Positions 6,603 to 23,617 of a stretch of DNA of 24,504 nucleotides are shown one piece after another. Numbering within the stretch: the first letter of the stretch is position 1; each line of letters starts with the position of its first letter. This DNA comes from a virus (taxonomy: Duplodnaviria > Heunggongvirae > Uroviricota > Caudoviricetes): the IMG/VR virus record IMGVR_UViG_2861069343_000004. One strand, written 5' to 3'. The notes under the pieces are model-generated. The model saw only the letters and a program-made list of their open reading frames with translations, was not told where the DNA came from and searched no databases. Both the position numbers and the translations under genes were made by a program.

Positions 6603-6736
6603 AATAATGGCCTGACCTGATGACGGGCTCATAATCCAATCCATCAGGGGCGCTGCTGCAACAGCGTCACAGGCCGCCAGACCAAGCCTGGGTATTTTCG
6701 GTCATCACCGACATTGCTATTACCCTCATACTTATT

Positions 6737-6765
6737 GCCTGCCTAACCGCAGGCTTTTTTATTTT
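6737..6765 (+). terminator. Second intrinsic terminator (stem GCCTGC/GCAGGC, loop CTAACC, TTTTTTATTTT)
   Basis: Perfect 6-bp inverted repeat plus a T-run. Its tail repeats the ATTT(T)CAGGGTC motif that follows the first terminator. Confidence 0.6.
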
Positions 6766-6867
6766 CAGGGTCGCGGGAATCACCCTCGACGCTTTGTTGG
6801 TAAATCAGCCCGACGGCCCTGACCTTCTCACACACAGCTTCCCGATCTTTCATCGGAGGCGGTAACT

Positions 6868-7179
6868 ATGGCTAAGCGTATGCAAGACAAAGAGAGCATT
6901 GCCGGGATGTCCTGGCTGGTTCTGCTGATCATTGCTGGTTGGGGCGGCCTTGTCCGATTCCTGATGGACGTAAAGCAGGGCAAAGCAAAATGGAGCTGGA
7001 TAAATGCTTTTGCGCAGATTGTGGTTTCGGCTTTTACCGGGGTTATTGGTGGGCTCATCAGCATTGAAGGTGGCCTGAGTATTTACATGATACTGGCCAC
7101 TGCCGGTATCAGTGGTGCTATGGGTTCCGTAGCGCTCACGTATTTCTGGGAACGAATCACCGGAGTGAAAGCACAATGA
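6868..7179 (+). CDS. Holin, three predicted transmembrane segments (103 aa), with a possible dual start (M1 / M5)
   Basis: Three hydrophobic segments, a charged C-terminus, GGAGG ribosome-binding site, and a stop overlapping the endolysin start (ATGA). The N-terminus MAKRM resembles a holin/antiholin dual-start motif. Confidence 0.8.
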   Translation: MAKRMQDKESIAGMSWLVLLIIAGWGGLVRFLMDVKQGKAKWSWINAFAQIVVSAFTGVIGGLISIEGGLSIYMILATAGISGAMGSVALTYFWERITGVKAQ

Positions 7180-7715
7180 AAGCAGACCAGACTATCGAGG
7201 GGATCCTCGGCAAAGAGGGCGGTTATGTCGATCATCCGTCGGATAAAGGCGGGCCGACCCGCTGGGGCATCACGCAGACCACAGCTCGAGCACATGGTTA
7301 CACCGGTGATATGAGAAACCTGCCCAGGGAAACAGCAAAGCAAATTCTGCTCAGCGATTACTGGACCGGCCCCCGATTCGATCAGGTGGCAAGTTTATCT
7401 ACGTTACTGGCAGATGAGCTTTGCGACACTGGCGTGAACATGGGGCCATCGGTTGCAATTAAGTTTTTCCAGCGCTGGCTCACTGCCCTTAACATGCGTG
7501 GGAAGTTGTATCCCGATCTGATCCCGGATGGCGCCATTGGCCCCCGAACCATCACTGCGCTTAAGGGATATCTTTCAGCCCGCGGGAAAGAGGGGGAACA
7601 GGTTCTGTTACGTGCGCTGAACTGCAGCCAGGGCGCCAGATACCTCGAACTGGCGGAGGGCCGCGAAGCCAACGAGGAGTTCCTCTACGGCTGGGTTAAG
7701 GAGCGCGTGCTATGA
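7176..7715 (+). CDS. Endolysin, GH108-like catalytic domain plus peptidoglycan-binding C-terminal domain (179 aa)
   Basis: N-terminal motif EGGYVDHPSDKGGPTRWGIT matches the GH108 lysozyme-family signature as I remember it. Placed between holin and spanins. Confidence 0.8.
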   Translation: MKADQTIEGILGKEGGYVDHPSDKGGPTRWGITQTTARAHGYTGDMRNLPRETAKQILLSDYWTGPRFDQVASLSTLLADELCDTGVNMGPSVAIKFFQRWLTALNMRGKLYPDLIPDGAIGPRTITALKGYLSARGKEGEQVLLRALNCSQGARYLELAEGREANEEFLYGWVKERVL

Positions 7716-8331: not shown

Positions 8332-8479
8332 TACGGCCTGCAGCTGGGTGCGGATCATCTACCTGACCGACCACGACATCGACGTGCTGGATAAGCAGAC
8401 CAAGCGCGACATCCTGGCGCATAACAAAGCTTGGCAGGCGAACTGCCAGAAACCAACAGCCGTCACCATTCCAAAATGA
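8246..8479 (+). CDS. o-spanin (Rz1/LysC-like) outer-membrane lipoprotein, overlapping the i-spanin in the +1 frame (77 aa)
   Basis: The ATG at 8246 is preceded by AGGAGG. Signal peptide with an LIGSC lipobox-like motif, and Pro-rich. It starts inside the i-spanin gene and extends beyond it. Confidence 0.7.
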   Translation: MYSKPLAICLMTMLIGSCAKSLPAPVVVDTACSWVRIIYLTDHDIDVLDKQTKRDILAHNKAWQANCQKPTAVTIPK

Positions 8480-9746: not shown

Positions 9747-9804
9747 TGGCATTACAGAGCCACTTCAAGAGGTGGCTCGATAATGTCAAGGCGAGGACAA
9801 AATT

Positions 9805-10581
9805 ATGGCAAAACCGGACTGGGAGGCCATCGAATCGGCATACCGGGCCGGAGTCCTTAGTCTCCGTGATATAGGCGATAAATACGGCGTTACTGAAGGG
9901 GCTATCAGGAAGAGGGCTAAAAAATTTGACTGGGTACGCAATAGCGGTACGCAGGTACGCAAAAATGGTACGCAAAGTGGTACGCAAAAGAGTAAGGCGC
10001 GTACCAGCGAAAAGCCTGCCAGCGCTGGCCGCACGCAAAAAAGTACGCAACCAAAAGCCGAGCCTCCACCAGATACGAAACCGATACGCGGGGTGCGTAC
10101 CGATCCGCCGACCAACCCATTCCAACCCGGCAACCAGCAGGCGTTAAAGCATGGTGGTTACGCCCGGCGTCTTCTGCTTAAAGATGAGGTCATTGAAGAC
10201 GCGAAAGCGTTGACACTCGAAGACGAATTATTTCGCCTTCGGGCTAACAACCTTGTCGCCGCAGAGAATATTGGCCGGTGGTTGACCAAGCTGGATGATG
10301 CTGAAGGGGACCAGGAAAGAAAGGTGTTGATGGAAAATATCAGCGCCGCCGAGAAGGCGATGATGCGCAATACCGTTCGTATTGAGTCTATCGTCGGCAC
10401 GCTTGCGACGGTAGGCAAAATATTTGCTGATACAGACTATCGCAAGGCTGCTACTGATAAGGTGTCGCTGGAGGCCGATCGTCTTCGCCGTGATGCAGGT
10501 ATTGATGATGGCAACGGAGAGCGTGACCTCAATGACTTCTACTCTGACATCCAAACCGACGCTGAATCCGGTCCTGCGTAG
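9805..10581 (+). CDS. Putative terminase small subunit (258 aa)
   Basis: N-terminal helix-turn-helix-like segment (LSLRDIGDKYGVTEGAIRKRAKKFDW), a low-complexity basic linker, and a position immediately upstream of, and overlapping, the large terminase gene. Confidence 0.6.
   Translation: MAKPDWEAIESAYRAGVLSLRDIGDKYGVTEGAIRKRAKKFDWVRNSGTQVRKNGTQSGTQKSKARTSEKPASAGRTQKSTQPKAEPPPDTKPIRGVRTDPPTNPFQPGNQQALKHGGYARRLLLKDEVIEDAKALTLEDELFRLRANNLVAAENIGRWLTKLDDAEGDQERKVLMENISAAEKAMMRNTVRIESIVGTLATVGKIFADTDYRKAATDKVSLEADRLRRDAGIDDGNGERDLNDFYSDIQTDAESGPA
9933..9986 (+). repeat. Array of five perfect GGTACGCA octamers at spacings of 13, 8, 13 and 12 nt, plus degenerate copies (GCACGCAA, GTACGCAA) at 10031-10050
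   Basis: Counted directly in the sequence. Lies inside the putative small terminase gene, where it encodes the GTQ-repeat linker. Confidence 0.8.
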
Positions 10582-11932
10582 CTTCTGGACGACGCAGGCG
10601 CGTAACAAAGTGCTTTATGGTGGCCGGTCATCGTCAAAATCGTGGGATGCCGCTGGCATAGCCATATTTCTGTCGAATAAATACAGCCTGCGCTTTTGCT
10701 GTGCACGTCAGATCCAGAACAAAATTGAAGAGTCGGTATATACCCTGCTCAAAATTCAGATTGACCGCTTTGGCCTGCGGCATCGTTTCCGCATTCTGAA
10801 CAACAAAATCATTAACCGGGTGACCGGGTCTGAATTCGTCTTTTATGGGCTCTGGCGCAACATTGAAGAGATTAAGTCTCTGGAGGGTATCAGCGTTCTG
10901 TGGCTTGAAGAGGCCCACGCGCTGACGGAATACCAGTGGAAGATACTGGAGCCAACCATCCGTAAAGAGGGATCAGAGTGCTGGTTTATCTTTAACCCCG
11001 GGCTGGTGACTGATTTCGTGTGGCGTAACTTTGTGGTCGATCCGCCAGAAGATACGCTGATACGCAAAATCAACTACGATGAAAACCCCTTTTTGTCCGA
11101 CACCATGCTGAAGGTTATCGACGCCGCTAAACGCCGGGATCCGGATGGGTTTAAGCATGTCTACGAAGGCGTGCCAGAGTCGGATGATGATGCGGCCATT
11201 ATCAAGCTGTCATGGATTGAGGCGGCCGTTGATGCCCATAAAGTCCTTAATTTCGAGCCGAGCGGGCGCAAGCGTATTGGCTTCGACGTTGCTGATAGCG
11301 GCGCCGATAAGTGCGCTAACGTCTATCGTCACGGCTCCGTCGTGTATTGGGCGGATGAGTGGAAGGCGAAAGAAGACGAATTGCTGAAGAGCTGCCAGCG
11401 TACGTATCAGGCGGCACTGGAGCGTGATGCTGATATTGTCTACGACTCAATCGGCGTTGGGGCATCTGCTGGCGCGAAATTCTCAGAAATTAATGAGGAT
11501 CGTAAGCGCGAAAACATGAATGCATCCCGCATCAATTATCAGCGATTCAATGCTGGCGCTGGTGTGAATGAGCCGGACTACGAATATATTGGCATCCCGA
11601 ACAAGGATTTTTTCGCCAACCTCAAAGCGCAAGCCTGGTGGCTGGTGGCGGATCGCTTCCGTAACACCTTCAACGCGGTAAAGAACGGCGAGCAGTACCC
11701 GGTAGATGAGCTGATAAGCATCGACTCATCTTGTCCGCTGCTGGAAAAGCTCAAGCTGGAACTTACCACCCCGCACCGTGATTTTGACAAAAACGGTCGC
11801 GTGATGGTGGAAAGCAAGAAAGACCTCGCCAAGCGTGACGTACCATCGCCGAACGTGGCCGACGCGTTCATCATGGCGTTTGCTCCAACCGATACGGCAA
11901 TGGATATCTGGGAAGCGCTGGGAAACAGCTAA
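10532..11932 (+). CDS. Terminase large subunit (about 466 aa from the ATG at 10532; in-frame alternatives at 10505 and 10424)
   Basis: Walker-A-like YGGRSSSKSWD near the N-terminus, a Walker-B-like VLWLEEAH segment, a C-terminal nuclease-like acidic region, and a length typical of large terminases. Confidence 0.85.
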   Translation: MTSTLTSKPTLNPVLRSFWTTQARNKVLYGGRSSSKSWDAAGIAIFLSNKYSLRFCCARQIQNKIEESVYTLLKIQIDRFGLRHRFRILNNKIINRVTGSEFVFYGLWRNIEEIKSLEGISVLWLEEAHALTEYQWKILEPTIRKEGSECWFIFNPGLVTDFVWRNFVVDPPEDTLIRKINYDENPFLSDTMLKVIDAAKRRDPDGFKHVYEGVPESDDDAAIIKLSWIEAAVDAHKVLNFEPSGRKRIGFDVADSGADKCANVYRHGSVVYWADEWKAKEDELLKSCQRTYQAALERDADIVYDSIGVGASAGAKFSEINEDRKRENMNASRINYQRFNAGAGVNEPDYEYIGIPNKDFFANLKAQAWWLVADRFRNTFNAVKNGEQYPVDELISIDSSCPLLEKLKLELTTPHRDFDKNGRVMVESKKDLAKRDVPSPNVADAFIMAFAPTDTAMDIWEALGNS

Positions 11933-12154: not shown

Positions 12155-13606
12155 ATGGCGAAGAAAACAGGACGAGTCGCCACGGCGGATTCGTACGATA
12201 ACTTTGTTGCCCGTGTCGGAATGCAGCAGCCTAACCAGCATGCCGCATCGACCTACAGGGCGAACTATACCAGCCGCAACCGCCTGCTCATCGAGTGGGC
12301 TTATCGTTCCTCCTGGATTATTGGTGCCGCAGTCGATTCGAAAGCGGACGATATGACCAAAAAGGGCGTGCGGATCACCAGTGAGATTGACCCGAAACGT
12401 CGTGGCATTCTGGAATCACGGTTCGATGAGCTTCAGCTTTGGGATTGCATCAACGAGACGCTGAAATGGTCCCGGCTGTATGGCGGGGCGGTGGCGCTGA
12501 TTCTGATTGAAGGTCAGGCACCGCTGACGCCGCTGGTGCTGGATAAGGTTGGCAAGGGCAGCTTTAAAGGTCTGGCTGTACTTGACCGCTGGATGATTAA
12601 CCCACAGCTCACCAGGCGCATTAAGGCGCTTGGCCCCAATCTCGGCAAGCCAGAATTCTATGACATCGTGACGACGGCGCAGGGGCTTCCTGCGTGGACC
12701 GTTCACCACAGCCGACTGATTCGCATGGATGGTGTGAAACTGCCCTACCAGCAGAAAATCACCGAAAACGAGTGGGGCATGTCCATTGTCGAGCGCATCT
12801 TCGATCGCCTGACTTCCTACGATAGCACCAGCGTCGGCGCCGCCCAGCTTGCCTACAAGGCACATCTGCGAACGGCAAAGATTAAAAAGCTGCGTGAAAT
12901 TATCGCCATGGGCGGTAAACCATTCGAAGCGCTGGTTAAACAAATGGAGTTAGTTCGCCAGTACCAGACGAACGAGGGTATGTCCCTGTTTGATTCGGAG
13001 GACGAATTTGAAACACATTCCTATTCTTTCGCGGGCCTGTCTGACCTGCTTAGCGAGTTTAAAGAGGATATCGCGGGTGCTGTTGGCATTCCTCTTGTCC
13101 GTCTGTTCCGCCAGTCACCGAAGGGTTTTTCAACCGGTGACGCTGACCTCGCGAACTACTACGACGACGTTGGAACGCTTCAGGAGCGAGATTTACGGCC
13201 TCACATCCGCCTGTTATTCGATGTACTGCATCGCTCAGAGTTTGGCGAGCCGTTGCCGCAAGATTTCACCTTTGAGTTTAACCCCCTGTGGCAGATGAGC
13301 GACACCGATCGCTCCACGGTGGCAACCAACACAACTACCGCTCTTGCAACCGCGGTGCGTGATTTGGGCATGTCGCCGGCTGCTGCTCTGACTGATTTGC
13401 GCGAGCTGTCTGACGTTACCGGCATCGGTGCTTCAATTAGCGATGAGGATATCCAGAATGCGGCGAAACAGTGGCAGGAGACTGAATCTGAAACCAGCCC
13501 TCCGCCGCCGATCGGAGGTCCAGTATCAGAAAAGCCTACTGGCGATAGTCGACCAGATAAATCAAATCGTCACGGGTTCCTACGATGGTTCACAGGCAAG
13601 CGCTGA
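12155..13606 (+). CDS. Portal protein (483 aa)
   Basis: Large ORF directly downstream of the large terminase with a GGAG ribosome-binding site, followed by a Mu-F-like head morphogenesis gene. Size and order fit a portal. The C-terminal 60 aa are low-complexity and overlap the next ORF. Confidence 0.75.
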   Translation: MAKKTGRVATADSYDNFVARVGMQQPNQHAASTYRANYTSRNRLLIEWAYRSSWIIGAAVDSKADDMTKKGVRITSEIDPKRRGILESRFDELQLWDCINETLKWSRLYGGAVALILIEGQAPLTPLVLDKVGKGSFKGLAVLDRWMINPQLTRRIKALGPNLGKPEFYDIVTTAQGLPAWTVHHSRLIRMDGVKLPYQQKITENEWGMSIVERIFDRLTSYDSTSVGAAQLAYKAHLRTAKIKKLREIIAMGGKPFEALVKQMELVRQYQTNEGMSLFDSEDEFETHSYSFAGLSDLLSEFKEDIAGAVGIPLVRLFRQSPKGFSTGDADLANYYDDVGTLQERDLRPHIRLLFDVLHRSEFGEPLPQDFTFEFNPLWQMSDTDRSTVATNTTTALATAVRDLGMSPAAALTDLRELSDVTGIGASISDEDIQNAAKQWQETESETSPPPPIGGPVSEKPTGDSRPDKSNRHGFLRWFTGKR

Positions 13607-21532: not shown

Positions 21533-23617
21533 ATGAGTGAATACGATACCGGCAATCCTGTGCCGTCTGCATCAATACCTGATGCATGGGATAATATGCA
21601 GACTATTGACAGGTTCGCTAATAGTAGTGATGAAACTATTACCACGCGTACAGGTAAGCAGTTAGACACTCTGCATGGCATCAATGTAAAGTCTGATAAC
21701 CAACTTAATGAACAACAAGATACCTTTGAATTATCTCAATCCGAAAGGGAATCCTCTTTCGAAGAAAAATCAAATGAATTTGAATCGCGCTTCTCCTCTC
21801 AGTTATCGGCGCAGGAATCAACATTTTCAGAATCTCAATCTGATAAAGAAAACCGCTTTCAGCAGTTCCTGAATACTTCAGGATACGTGTTCCTTGGCGA
21901 TTATCAGGACGGCCCATTCCAGTTTAGTGCCCGTAACCAGTACATCCGTTACGACAATGAGTATTACCGCCTGAATGCTGCTACTGACGTCGGCTTTACG
22001 ACCACCGGAACCGATGCGACCAGCTTTGCGAACGACGTTACTCACTTCGTTCTGATGGATGGTGATACGCTTCGCCAAGACCTGGGTTCAGGCGAAGGAG
22101 CAATGAAGGTTTACCGGAACGCCTCACCTCTGGCCAGAATCATTCGCTCCTCGATTTTTGAATACCTTACTGAAGCTGATCAGCAGGCGTTGCTCACAAT
22201 TCCTGGCGTTAATGTTATCGCTGACTACGCGTTAAAAAAAGCTATAGCTGATGGAGTGATGGTACTGGATATTCCGTGGAATGTCGGTGCGTTAAATTTC
22301 GGGCTTGACCCCGCAATGCTTCCATTAGGTTTTCAATTTATAGGGTGGGGTTGCCGACGCCCATATACAATTGATGACGATAACAGTTTTCTGAATTGCG
22401 GAGTCGTCATCCGCGTAGCAGCTGGTGCAAGTTTTCCATTTTATTCAACAGGCAGGCATGTATTCCGGGATATTGTTTTTGATGGCCGAGATAAAACAAC
22501 GTACCTTTTTTATTCGCCAAATACTGCAACCCAGTTCAACGGCACCCGACTTGAGGGGTGCGGATTTTATCGGTTTGCGATCGGGATTGGCTGGGCTTCA
22601 GGAGGAACAGCCAGGTACATCGGAACAATGAAAGCATATTTCTGCTCAATATCCGGAAACGGGGATGGAGTCAGGAATTTAATAGACTCCATGATGTTTG
22701 GTTGCACAATCAATGCTAATGATCGAGGAGTGGCCCTTACCGGTGGGGCAAACAATAACTTTTTTGGAGGATGCCGGAACGAATGGAACACCGGCGATAA
22801 CTGGTATGCGTACCAGTCGGTGGAGAACCAGATTTTCGGCGAACTGTGCGACAGGGCCGGAAGGGGAGGTGTGGTCGCCGGGGCGAAATCCTCATGGATT
22901 TTAAACGGCGTTAACGTCCGGCGCAGTGGTGCTAATCAACCCGTGGGTAATGACTATTCCGCAAACTTTATTATTATTGATGACGGTAAAATTGAACTCT
23001 CAGGGGTAAGAACTGGTGTCGGTGCGAATGACAGCGGTGACGGAGGGACAATCTCGCCATCCTACAACGTATCGGCTCTTGGCTCTGGCGGGGGGACCTT
23101 GCAGGTTTCCGGAAGTGACATGACTGGTTTTGTTACTTCAGCAATTAACCAGAAGGCGACCACGTTAAATAAGTCGATAACCGGCAACCTTGGTATGGAC
23201 GACGATGTAAATATTGGTATGACCCAGGTTGTTAAAGGCAGGCGAATTATTGGTTCACAGTCATCAGGTACGTTAGCAGGCTCTGCGGGCGCAACGTTAT
23301 CGCTGACCAAGACCAACATATTCCAGAATTCTTTCGATACATATATTACCCGTTCAATCCTAATTGAATGTCGAATTGGTAGCCAGTCATTTGGTGACGA
23401 TATTAAAATTCCCGTCAGATTCAGAAGGGAGAATCTTTATTATCTGGATATCCTGACCTCGGGAATTGTTGCCAGCTCTGCACGCATTGGGCTTTCAGGG
23501 ACTGGCGTAACGGTATCATTGTCCATTAACAGCTCAACCGGTCTGGTTACTGTTCAGTTGACAAATGTTGATGGTCTGGAAAGAACCGTTAATGTATCAA
23601 TGTTGCCCTCAATGTAG
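21533..23617 (+). CDS. Tailspike-like receptor-binding protein / putative polysaccharide depolymerase (694 aa)
   Basis: Large, lower-GC ORF after the tail fibre. The acidic Ser/Glu-rich N-terminal region is followed by repetitive Gly/Asn-rich segments (FGCTINANDRGVALTGGANNNFFGG, NFIIIDDGKIELSGVRTG) compatible with a beta-helix. The fold is inferred, not demonstrated. Confidence 0.6.
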   Translation: MSEYDTGNPVPSASIPDAWDNMQTIDRFANSSDETITTRTGKQLDTLHGINVKSDNQLNEQQDTFELSQSERESSFEEKSNEFESRFSSQLSAQESTFSESQSDKENRFQQFLNTSGYVFLGDYQDGPFQFSARNQYIRYDNEYYRLNAATDVGFTTTGTDATSFANDVTHFVLMDGDTLRQDLGSGEGAMKVYRNASPLARIIRSSIFEYLTEADQQALLTIPGVNVIADYALKKAIADGVMVLDIPWNVGALNFGLDPAMLPLGFQFIGWGCRRPYTIDDDNSFLNCGVVIRVAAGASFPFYSTGRHVFRDIVFDGRDKTTYLFYSPNTATQFNGTRLEGCGFYRFAIGIGWASGGTARYIGTMKAYFCSISGNGDGVRNLIDSMMFGCTINANDRGVALTGGANNNFFGGCRNEWNTGDNWYAYQSVENQIFGELCDRAGRGGVVAGAKSSWILNGVNVRRSGANQPVGNDYSANFIIIDDGKIELSGVRTGVGANDSGDGGTISPSYNVSALGSGGGTLQVSGSDMTGFVTSAINQKATTLNKSITGNLGMDDDVNIGMTQVVKGRRIIGSQSSGTLAGSAGATLSLTKTNIFQNSFDTYITRSILIECRIGSQSFGDDIKIPVRFRRENLYYLDILTSGIVASSARIGLSGTGVTVSLSINSSTGLVTVQLTNVDGLERTVNVSMLPSM

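Follow-up and report, generated by a model that had tools for sequence, protein, structure and literature searches.

The octamer array in terS

The DNA analyzed here, referred to throughout as the window, is a 24,504-nt stretch of IMG/VR virus record IMGVR_UViG_2861069343_000004 (Caudoviricetes) and represents an Escherichia coli prophage that is 100% identical in several chromosomes. Its terS gene encodes the small terminase subunit (TerS), and the 5′ third of this gene, directly 3′ of the codons for an N-terminal helix-turn-helix (HTH), contains a direct array of the octamer GGTACGCA together with inverted copies (Table 1). Direct copies 1–5 correspond to terS nt 129–182, with the end of the HTH at about nt 129. 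A first-pass annotation made from the sequence alone had put the array forward as a candidate packaging-initiation (pac) site read by TerS, or alternatively as a slippage-prone linker. We analyzed the array within its gene, across related and unrelated TerS genes, and in non-coding DNA.

Five perfect copies within 54 bp and two degenerate copies downstream had been reported, and both sets were recovered as exact matches and as one- and two-mismatch variants, respectively; two inverted copies, one with a single mismatch and one perfect, had escaped that annotation. Counting both strands, GGTACGCA occurs 7 times in the 24.5-kb window against 0.45 expected, and 6/7 copies fall inside 170 bp of terS. 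The maximum count in 100 dinucleotide-preserving shuffles of the window was 3, so that 0/100 reached the observed value, and conservation of the cluster extends to hundreds of loci; chance clustering can be dismissed as an explanation. The sole copy outside terS (22807–22814, minus strand) is a single occurrence compatible with chance. Tandem Repeats Finder returned mixed periods of 8, 12 and 21 for the array, which is therefore not one regular tandem unit.

Table 1. Features of the packaging region in the window, and the arrays of the satellite-like contig L203 (last row, L203 coordinates)
Feature	Position	Strand	Description
terS, small terminase, 258 aa	9805..10581	+	N-terminal HTH, disordered linker, helical C-terminal body
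Recognition-helix codons E31-G-A-I-R-K-R-A-K39 (predicted)	9895..9921	+	Based on model helix 31–38, sub-threshold HTH Pfam matches and covariation
Octamer copy 1, GGTACGCA	9933..9940	+	Frame W-V-R-N
Octamer copy 2, GGTACGCA	9946..9953	+	Frame G-T-Q
Octamer copy 3, GGTACGCA	9954..9961	+	Frame V-R-K; abuts copy 2
Octamer copy 4, GGTACGCA	9967..9974	+	Frame G-T-Q
Octamer copy 5, GGTACGCA	9979..9986	+	Frame G-T-Q
Inverted copy GGTACGCG	9998..10005	-	1 mismatch; codes A-R-T
Degenerate direct copies	10030..10049	+	CGCACGCA at 10030 (2 mismatches), AGTACGCA at 10042 (1 mismatch)
Distal part	10066..10101	.	CAGATACGAAACCGATACGCGGGG, then perfect inverted GGTACGCA at 10094–10101 (-)
terL, large terminase	10505..11932	+	Pfam Terminase_3, E 7.2e-40; overlaps terS 3′ end
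Portal protein gene	12155..13606	+	Pfam Phage_portal_3, E 9.7e-102; completes packaging module
L203 non-coding arrays	6690-6930 and 8400-8434		Three separate arrays

The octamers are constrained as DNA

Copies 2, 4 and 5 start at codon position 1 and encode Gly-Thr-Gln, whereas copies 1 and 3 start at codon position 3 and encode Val-Arg, and the inverted copies encode Arg-Thr. The earlier description of a GTQ-repeat linker, in which repetition of DNA and of protein coincide, thus holds for the former three copies but not for the latter two. Retention of one octamer in two frames and in both orientations indicates that the constraint is on the DNA. Codon choice follows the same pattern: in the SEN34-type terS genes described below (31 loci with three sites each), Val at the sites is encoded by GTA in 93/93 cases versus 69/279 elsewhere in the same genes, and Arg by CGC in 93/93 versus 182/523. 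The terS of Aeromonas phage pAEv1818, with DNA identity of ~66%, retains five perfect direct copies and one perfect inverted copy in the same places as invariant islands; the inverted site at 9998–10005 is perfect at the same place not only in pAEv1818 but also in E. coli C25 and in satellite-like loci. Octamer conservation is independent of reading frame, orientation and codon choice, demonstrating that the sites are under DNA-level rather than protein-level constraint.

Close relatives were defined as 80 IMG/VR loci with TerS protein identity of 87–100%. A comparison of repeat number among related elements, as suggested in the first-pass annotation, revealed 4–8 perfect octamers in the first 330 nt of each terS, the array being retained throughout (n = 80), and only 1 octamer in 263,203 nt of flanking sequence. 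Copy number changes by whole 12-bp units, with a KSTQ-coding unit present up to 4 times; slippage does occur, yet the array is always kept. The unit in question, AAAAGTACGCAA (window 10030–10053), is found in 2–4 tandem copies in some close relatives (L039, L046), where the KSTQ-expanded terS genes measure 789 and 813 nt and the expansion adds one-mismatch octamers AGTACGCA distally.

These whole-unit changes, the predicted disorder of the encoded segment, and the presence of the octamer in chance repeats elsewhere (collagen-like GTQ and AQVRT) would all fit a slippage-prone low-complexity linker whose DNA repeat is a by-product of peptide repetition or of slippage during replication, with no cis-acting role. 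The unit indels are real but insufficient: slippage does not account for two reading frames, both orientations and irregular periods, for synonymous positions frozen at 93/93 versus 25–35% elsewhere, or for octamers that stay invariant at 66% gene identity, and it leaves aside the covariation of the site with the HTH helix and the arrays in non-coding DNA presented below. We consider a linker without further function highly improbable. Assignment to the class of simple tandem repeats or low-complexity linkers was likewise rejected, given the mixed periods, the two frames, the inverted copies and the frozen synonymous sites.

The array tracks the HTH of TerS

Natural exchanges of the HTH separate the array from the remainder of TerS. 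The TerS proteins of Salmonella phage SEN34, Edwardsiella phage GF-2 and coliphage HK639 have only the first ~45 aa in common with the window TerS (MAKPDWEAIE.AYRAGV.SLREIA...EGAIRKRAK), the remaining TerS body being unrelated, and each of the three genes carries 3–4 GGTACGCA directly 3′ of the HTH codons. Among their large terminase subunits (TerL), that of HK639 gave different, sub-threshold Pfam matches and that of SEN34 gave none. The TerS of Klebsiella phage RothC, in turn, joins another N-terminal HTH to the same C-terminal body as in phage Chronis, whose TerS is closely related to that of the window; the RothC terS contains zero GGTACGCA and has TGCGAATTCGCA repeats at the same position instead, a pattern repeated in ~70 further IMG/VR loci. 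Across these comparisons, the array tracks the TerS HTH and not the remaining TerS or TerL, and the covariation of helix and repeat holds in the second (RothC) HTH type too.

This second HTH type (GLNYSSAKRYIK), which sits on the same TerS body (L008 590–650, the RothC terS; L305–L376), is always accompanied by palindromic TGCGAATTCGCA / ATTCGCA repeats coding ANSQK. A variant helix, GMEFNSARRYIK (NSARRYIK; L312), occurs with TGCGCAA repeats.

Correspondence between recognition helix and site

Alignment of 13 SEN34-type TerS proteins, combined with a scan of one genome per species, yielded 80 loci, spread over Enterobacterales, Pseudomonas, Acinetobacter, Burkholderiales and further groups. 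In an unbiased count of k-mers 3′ of the HTH codons, nearly every locus showed three copies of one octamer, at fixed positions in SEN34-type loci (nt 162, 177 and 189 from the DWE motif). Covariation was evaluated on 87 TerS genes from diverse Gamma- and Betaproteobacteria, with helix classes set by recognition-helix positions 1, 2 and 5, which in the window TerS are E31, G32 and R35, the residues co-varying with the octamer.

The most frequent class, E/D-G-A-I-R, is found with GGTACGCA (31 loci), followed by H-G/S-A-I/V-N with GGTATCCA (27 loci), H-T-A-I-N/G with GGTTTCCA (10 loci), H-T-A-I-Q and H-Q-A-I-S with GGTTGCCA (10 loci), H-V-A-I-A/N with GGTTACCA (4 loci), and E-S-G-I-R with the site GTGCGCA (2 loci). 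Three further pairs come from outside the counted set: D-T-A-I-R with GGTTCGCA (phages Shamal and PseuP_222), H-A-T-I-L with GGTAACCA (phage ENT1), and H-N-T-I-L with GGTGACCA (phage PS-1). Purity of the helix/octamer classes among the 87 genes was 0.977, compared with a maximum of 0.575 over 10,000 label shuffles.

Individual residues correspond to individual bases. Arg at helix position 5 pairs with CG at bases 5–6 in the EG, DT and ES contexts, and at position 2, Gly is found with A and Thr with T as base 4, a rule that holds in the Asn class as well as in the Arg class. As GGTATCCA and GGTTTCCA both code Val-Ser, base 4 is synonymous there; these sites read GTA TCC in 81/82 cases with G or S at helix position 2, and GTT TCC in 31/31 cases with T. 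A synonymous base that follows a recognition-helix residue makes a peptide-level effect impossible. HTH positions 1, 2 and 5 are the base-contacting residues in classical HTH proteins, and the helix of lambda Cro, QSAINKAIH, resembles HGAINKRAK. The association is also independent of the remaining TerS, as helix and site differ in 113 TerS pairs with bodies at least 75% identical and are the same in 134 pairs with bodies at most 40% identical.

The octamers might instead be sites of another DNA-binding protein, of phage or host, and track the TerS HTH by adjacency and joint recombination; linkage is expected when HTH codons and array lie within 10–100 nt. Such a protein is very unlikely in our view, because the residue–base rules (G/T at position 2 with A/T at base 4; R with CG) recur in independent backgrounds, all copies of an array change together, and the same HTH/site pair is found in phages without other detectable common genes and also with differing TerL, and the module is not accompanied by any other conserved DNA-binding gene.

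A reverse scan of IMG/VR for three closely spaced GGTACGCA returned at least 120 stretches; the set examined comprised 85 arrays in 80 loci. Sixty-seven of these 85 arrays lie 41–99 nt 3′ of xEGAIRK-type helix codons or, within a terS of this kind, at a contig edge; the others in the set are, for the most part, unrelated tandem repeats in coding sequence (collagen-like GTQ, AQVRT). In two high-GC viral contigs (L187, 6792–6850; L211, 3520–3570), 3–4 tandem 11-bp units CCGGTACGCAG are followed by inverted TGCGTACC directly upstream of a helicase-like open reading frame (ORF; MSFTPRPYQLDAIEAL). Their direct-plus-inverted architecture matches and their context differs; an EGAIRK-type HTH was not found in the sequence of these contigs that was examined.

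Non-coding arrays in satellite-like elements

Arrays of the same kind were also found outside terS. The 8.9-kb contig L203 (IMGVR_UViG_2597490214_000015), which has an identical twin (L386), contains a region homologous to window 9940–10101 outside any terS ORF; this region has a broken frame and diverged spacers and still retains both the octamers and the distal CAGATACGAAACCGATACG...TGCGTACC segment. The first of its three arrays consists of GGTACGCA ×3 plus inverted copies, the one directly downstream of AGTTTCCA ×3 plus inverted GGTTTCCA, and the one further downstream of GGTTGCCA ×3 at 15/12 spacing. Judged by the helix classes above, the three arrays would be cognate to three different TerS helix classes. 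The distal segment of the window (10066–10101) is present in the non-coding copies of L203/L386 and of L388 and is slightly diverged in L387; it probably belongs to the signal, where it may serve as a second TerS site or as the cleavage region.

L203 encodes a DUF927 primase, a few tail-tip-like proteins, a DUF2280 protein and, at 7213–7659, a 148-aa protein that resembles the TerS body without the HTH. Relatives of this HTH-less TerS-like gene have non-coding arrays 200–650 nt upstream in 10/17 loci, L203 and its twin included. In L203/L386, L387, L388 and L398, the octamers of the upstream array are conserved and the spacers diverged; the GGTACGCA array is concatenated with a GGTTTCCA array in L387, L388 and L398, and TGCGAATTGCGCA / ATTCGCA motifs of the RothC type are found in L390, L396, L397, L398 and L400. 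The order of concatenation upstream of the HTH-less gene is GGTACGCA, then GGTTTCCA, then TGCGAATTGCGCA / CTGCGCAA / ATTCGCA. Arrays of L387, L388, L390, L396, L397, L398 and L400 are located ~200–650 nt upstream of position 2501, and in L387 an integrase adjoins the HTH-less gene. The satellite-like region of L203 had no copy in the E. coli genomes searched.

The joint presence of such arrays in non-coding DNA is hard to explain unless they are cis-acting signals read by TerS. We infer that L203-type loci are satellite-like integrative elements carrying packaging signals for several helper terminases, and the concatenated region upstream of the HTH-less gene may constitute a "polyglot" pac region serving several helpers.

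These elements also bear on whether TerS binds the octamers for regulation rather than packaging, by autoregulating terS or the late operon or by coupling translation to assembly. All support for TerS binding fits regulation equally well, and the sites do lie inside the coding sequence of terS itself. Satellite-like elements, however, hold the arrays in non-coding DNA beside arrays of other classes, as suits a packaging signal and not the autoregulation of an absent gene; in addition, the P1 precedent with the same layout (see below) is a mapped cleavage site, and recognition of pac or cos is what defines TerS function (PMC13595956). A purely regulatory role is accordingly improbable.

Terminase proteins and prophage context

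Over its full length, the terS ORF matches PHROG 370, "terminase small subunit" (E = 1.9e-100). No Pfam family scored above threshold for the window TerS; sub-threshold HTH matches cover aa 7–42 (Sigma70_r4, E = 0.0017, and others), and a Pfam assignment of the HTH was rejected since all of them fall below threshold. A single-sequence AlphaFold2 (AF2) model with a mean predicted local distance difference test (pLDDT) score of 62, used for secondary structure and disorder only, contains short N-terminal helices (aa 6–14, 20–27 and 31–38) and long helices at aa 119–230, with pLDDT below 50 at aa 48–130. The three short helices are predicted to form the HTH, and the array (aa 43–61) would accordingly encode the start of a flexible linker. 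A sequence search for solved-structure TerS relatives of the window TerS gave no match. Foldseek relatives of the model were rejected, as they comprised only generic helical bundles, none at E of 0.001 or below.

TerL matches PDB 4idh, "Gene 2 protein", over aa 18–459 (E = 1.7e-79); this entry is gp2 from the headful-packaging Shigella phage Sf6. The terL ATG at 10505 lies inside terS, in another frame, so that the two genes share the final 77 nt of terS; a longer TTG-initiated ORF from 10424 probably does not mark the real terL start, as the annotated coding sequence (CDS) of RCIP0098 starts at the equivalent of 10505. Klebsiella phage GZ7 is 99.5% identical to the window, and a terS match is present in 206/5,426 complete E. 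coli genomes, making this prophage a common one in the species.

A model for packaging initiation

Frame and orientation independence, tracking of the HTH, helix covariation and non-coding occurrence together strongly support the proposal of the first-pass annotation. The array is very probably the cognate DNA recognition site of the TerS encoded around it, and as such the recognition part of the prophage pac site. As to its components, TerS in all likelihood recognizes the array, and packaging probably starts from it.

From these comparisons we infer binding, wrapping, the cut position, and headful packaging with its direction, in the following scheme. The N-terminal HTH of TerS, through its recognition helix E31-GAIRKRAK, would read the octamer GGTACGCA, with several HTHs of the TerS oligomer occupying adjacent copies 12–13 bp apart as well as the inverted copies. 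Concatemer DNA would thereby wrap on the TerS ring, and the complex would recruit the Sf6-like TerL, which would make the first cut nearby and then package by the headful mechanism in the terS-to-terL direction. Placement of the sites in the codons of the disordered linker (aa 43–100) would exploit a segment that tolerates sequence constraint.

Several points weigh against a pac site at the array. No single copy is essential, given the polymorphic copy number, and with an Sf6-like TerL the cut may be imprecise and distant. The Mulock announcement, which contains no data on packaging, and the RCIP records give no virion-DNA termini. Breaks inside terS in RCIP0034 and RCIP0098 (query nt 688/689) were considered as termini and rejected: the RCIP0098 record starts 12 nt before the TerL CDS, which reflects a re-orientation convention and not a terminus. 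No match to the integration host factor (IHF) consensus WATCAR-N4-TTR was found on either strand of 9800–10600, a scan that weak sites could escape. The TerS structure is a single-sequence prediction of modest confidence. With only 10–100 nt between them, HTH codons and array would form a co-inherited recombination module, and part of the association may be linkage; linkage explains co-inheritance, but neither the concerted change of all array copies nor the recurring residue–base rules. Finally, PdC23, Orisa03, L168 and L177 are without a clear three-copy array after the HTH codons, and recognition sites in these members, if any, may lie elsewhere or be degenerate. Their helices are divergent: EGAIRKQAK within an otherwise different HTH in Pantoea phage PdC23 (L101), HVSIHKRAK in Orisa03 (L100), HTLVARKAK in L168 and HGTVTRRAG in L177.

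A broader proposal goes beyond the pac site of the window and is put forward more tentatively, as possible rather than probable: a modular, readable TerS code, of which the window array may be one instance and in which bases 4–7 of the octamer GGTNNNCA would be set by helix positions 1, 2 and 5, and its exploitation by satellite-like elements. Such a code may extend to hundreds of proteobacterial prophages that differ in TerL type and have TerS bodies of two or more unrelated kinds, and small integrative satellite-like elements may string together non-coding arrays of the GGTACGCA, GGTTTCCA, GGTTGCCA and TGCGAATTCGCA types beside an HTH-less TerS paralogue, to be packaged by helpers with different terminases.

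Comparison with known packaging systems

The closest characterized system is P1 pac, described as "seven hexanucleotide repeats" (PMC11260489, 2024). In the annotated P1 record, the PacA HTH spans aa 1–45, TGATCA/G hexamers lie at pacA nt 194, 201, 213 and 228, and they are followed by an IHF site (256–268), the mapped cleavages (276–285) and further hexamers at 324, 336 and 347. P1 pac and the window array are alike in having a short motif repeated inside the small-terminase gene ~60 nt or less after the HTH codons, copies in different frames, spacings of 7–15 bp, and a proximal cluster with more distal copies roughly 100 nt downstream. They differ in that the window motif is an asymmetric, oriented octamer, its distal cluster is degenerate or inverted (10030, 10042, 10094), its region lacks the IHF consensus that in P1 lies between the clusters, and its TerL is Sf6-like rather than PacB. 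Moreover, GGTACGCA contains no GATC, so that no Dam control is expected, unlike in P1. Homology of the window TerS to PacA was rejected (BLASTP best E 0.36), which makes P1 an analogue and not a family member.

Shiga toxin (Stx) phages 933W and VT2-Sakai have a TerS body 37% identical to that of the window, and their TerS HTH is weakly similar to PacA (27% over 45 aa, pairwise E 0.008), suggesting that Stx-phage TerS forms a bridge between the window TerS and P1 PacA; P1 was not among the matches of a tblastn search with Stx-phage TerS. Directly after the HTH codons, the Stx-phage terS (L102 866–913 in VT2-Sakai; the same in 933W and ~200 Stx phage records) carries four tandem 12-bp units with [C/T]GATCAT that code IDHE/IDHK/TDHE/IDHD, and these Dam-site repeats recall the P1 pac hexamers.

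Specificity classes of lambda, 21 and N15 are defined by matched changes in the recognition helix and the R sites (PMC4669245), and the helix–site correspondence described here would represent the same principle on a much larger scale. Lambda cosB and the window array both comprise several copies, one of them inverted in lambda's cosB layout as in that of the window, read by the N-terminal HTH of TerS (a prediction for the window). The R sites, however, lie upstream of the TerS gene, by cosN, and serve cohesive-end cutting, whereas the window sites lie inside terS and its Terminase_3 TerL is of the Sf6-like, headful type; the TerS proteins are not detectably related. With P22 and Sf6 the window has in common a signal within terS and a headful-type TerL related to Sf6 gp2 (4idh). 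P22 pac is a single asymmetric site of ~22 bp (sequence in PMC5261728; consensus in PMC11260489), in contrast to the array of 8-bp units in the window. Bacillus phage SPP1, according to PMC4737164, has repeated pacL/pacR boxes that are bound by G1P and flank the cut, with an HTH ring that engages several sites, and SPP1/SF6 recognition is described there as relying on sequence-independent contacts. Repeated TerS boxes and an HTH ring on several sites, the latter as a proposal, are features of the window as well; its strict 8-bp sequence, by contrast, is conserved and co-varies with the helix, and the proteins are not homologous.

Satellites such as the E. coli phage-inducible chromosomal islands (PICIs; Rpp/cos) and the Staphylococcus aureus pathogenicity islands (SaPIs; TerS) reportedly redirect the helper terminase. 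L203-type elements resemble them in combining a helper-type packaging signal with a TerS-related gene. Where known enteric PICIs have cos sites and Rpp, however, L203-type elements have pac-type arrays that are concatenated and differ in specificity, along with a TerS paralogue that lacks the HTH.

Significance

A repeat-array recognition site for a TerS HTH inside or next to terS is a kind of signal already known. In the literature searched, we found no description of the octamer motif, of the pac site of the window TerS family or of a helix–site code, nor of concatenated pac-type arrays with an HTH-less TerS paralogue in satellites; the octamer string itself retrieved nothing but unrelated matches to primers and sequences. 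Known pac sites are few, that of ES18 being unknown as of 2024 (PMC11260489), and experimentally defined sites come from only a handful of phages. The packaging sequence of SEN34 could not be identified in its genome paper (PMC5261728); this phage belongs to the family analyzed here, and its terS carries three GGTACGCA.

An 8-bp site at 12–15 bp spacing, together with the helix–base correspondence in 87 genes, would allow the pac recognition site to be located from sequence only, and with it the origin and direction of headful packaging and of lateral transduction. This would apply to a large group of prophages in E. coli, Klebsiella, Salmonella, Pseudomonas, Acinetobacter and Burkholderiales. 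The array also offers a tractable system for how a TerS HTH ring reads specific DNA, and a route to engineered packaging specificity of transducing particles. If the modular code holds true, packaging specificity, helper–satellite pairing and the origins of lateral transduction could be predicted from sequence and also re-programmed by a few helix substitutions.

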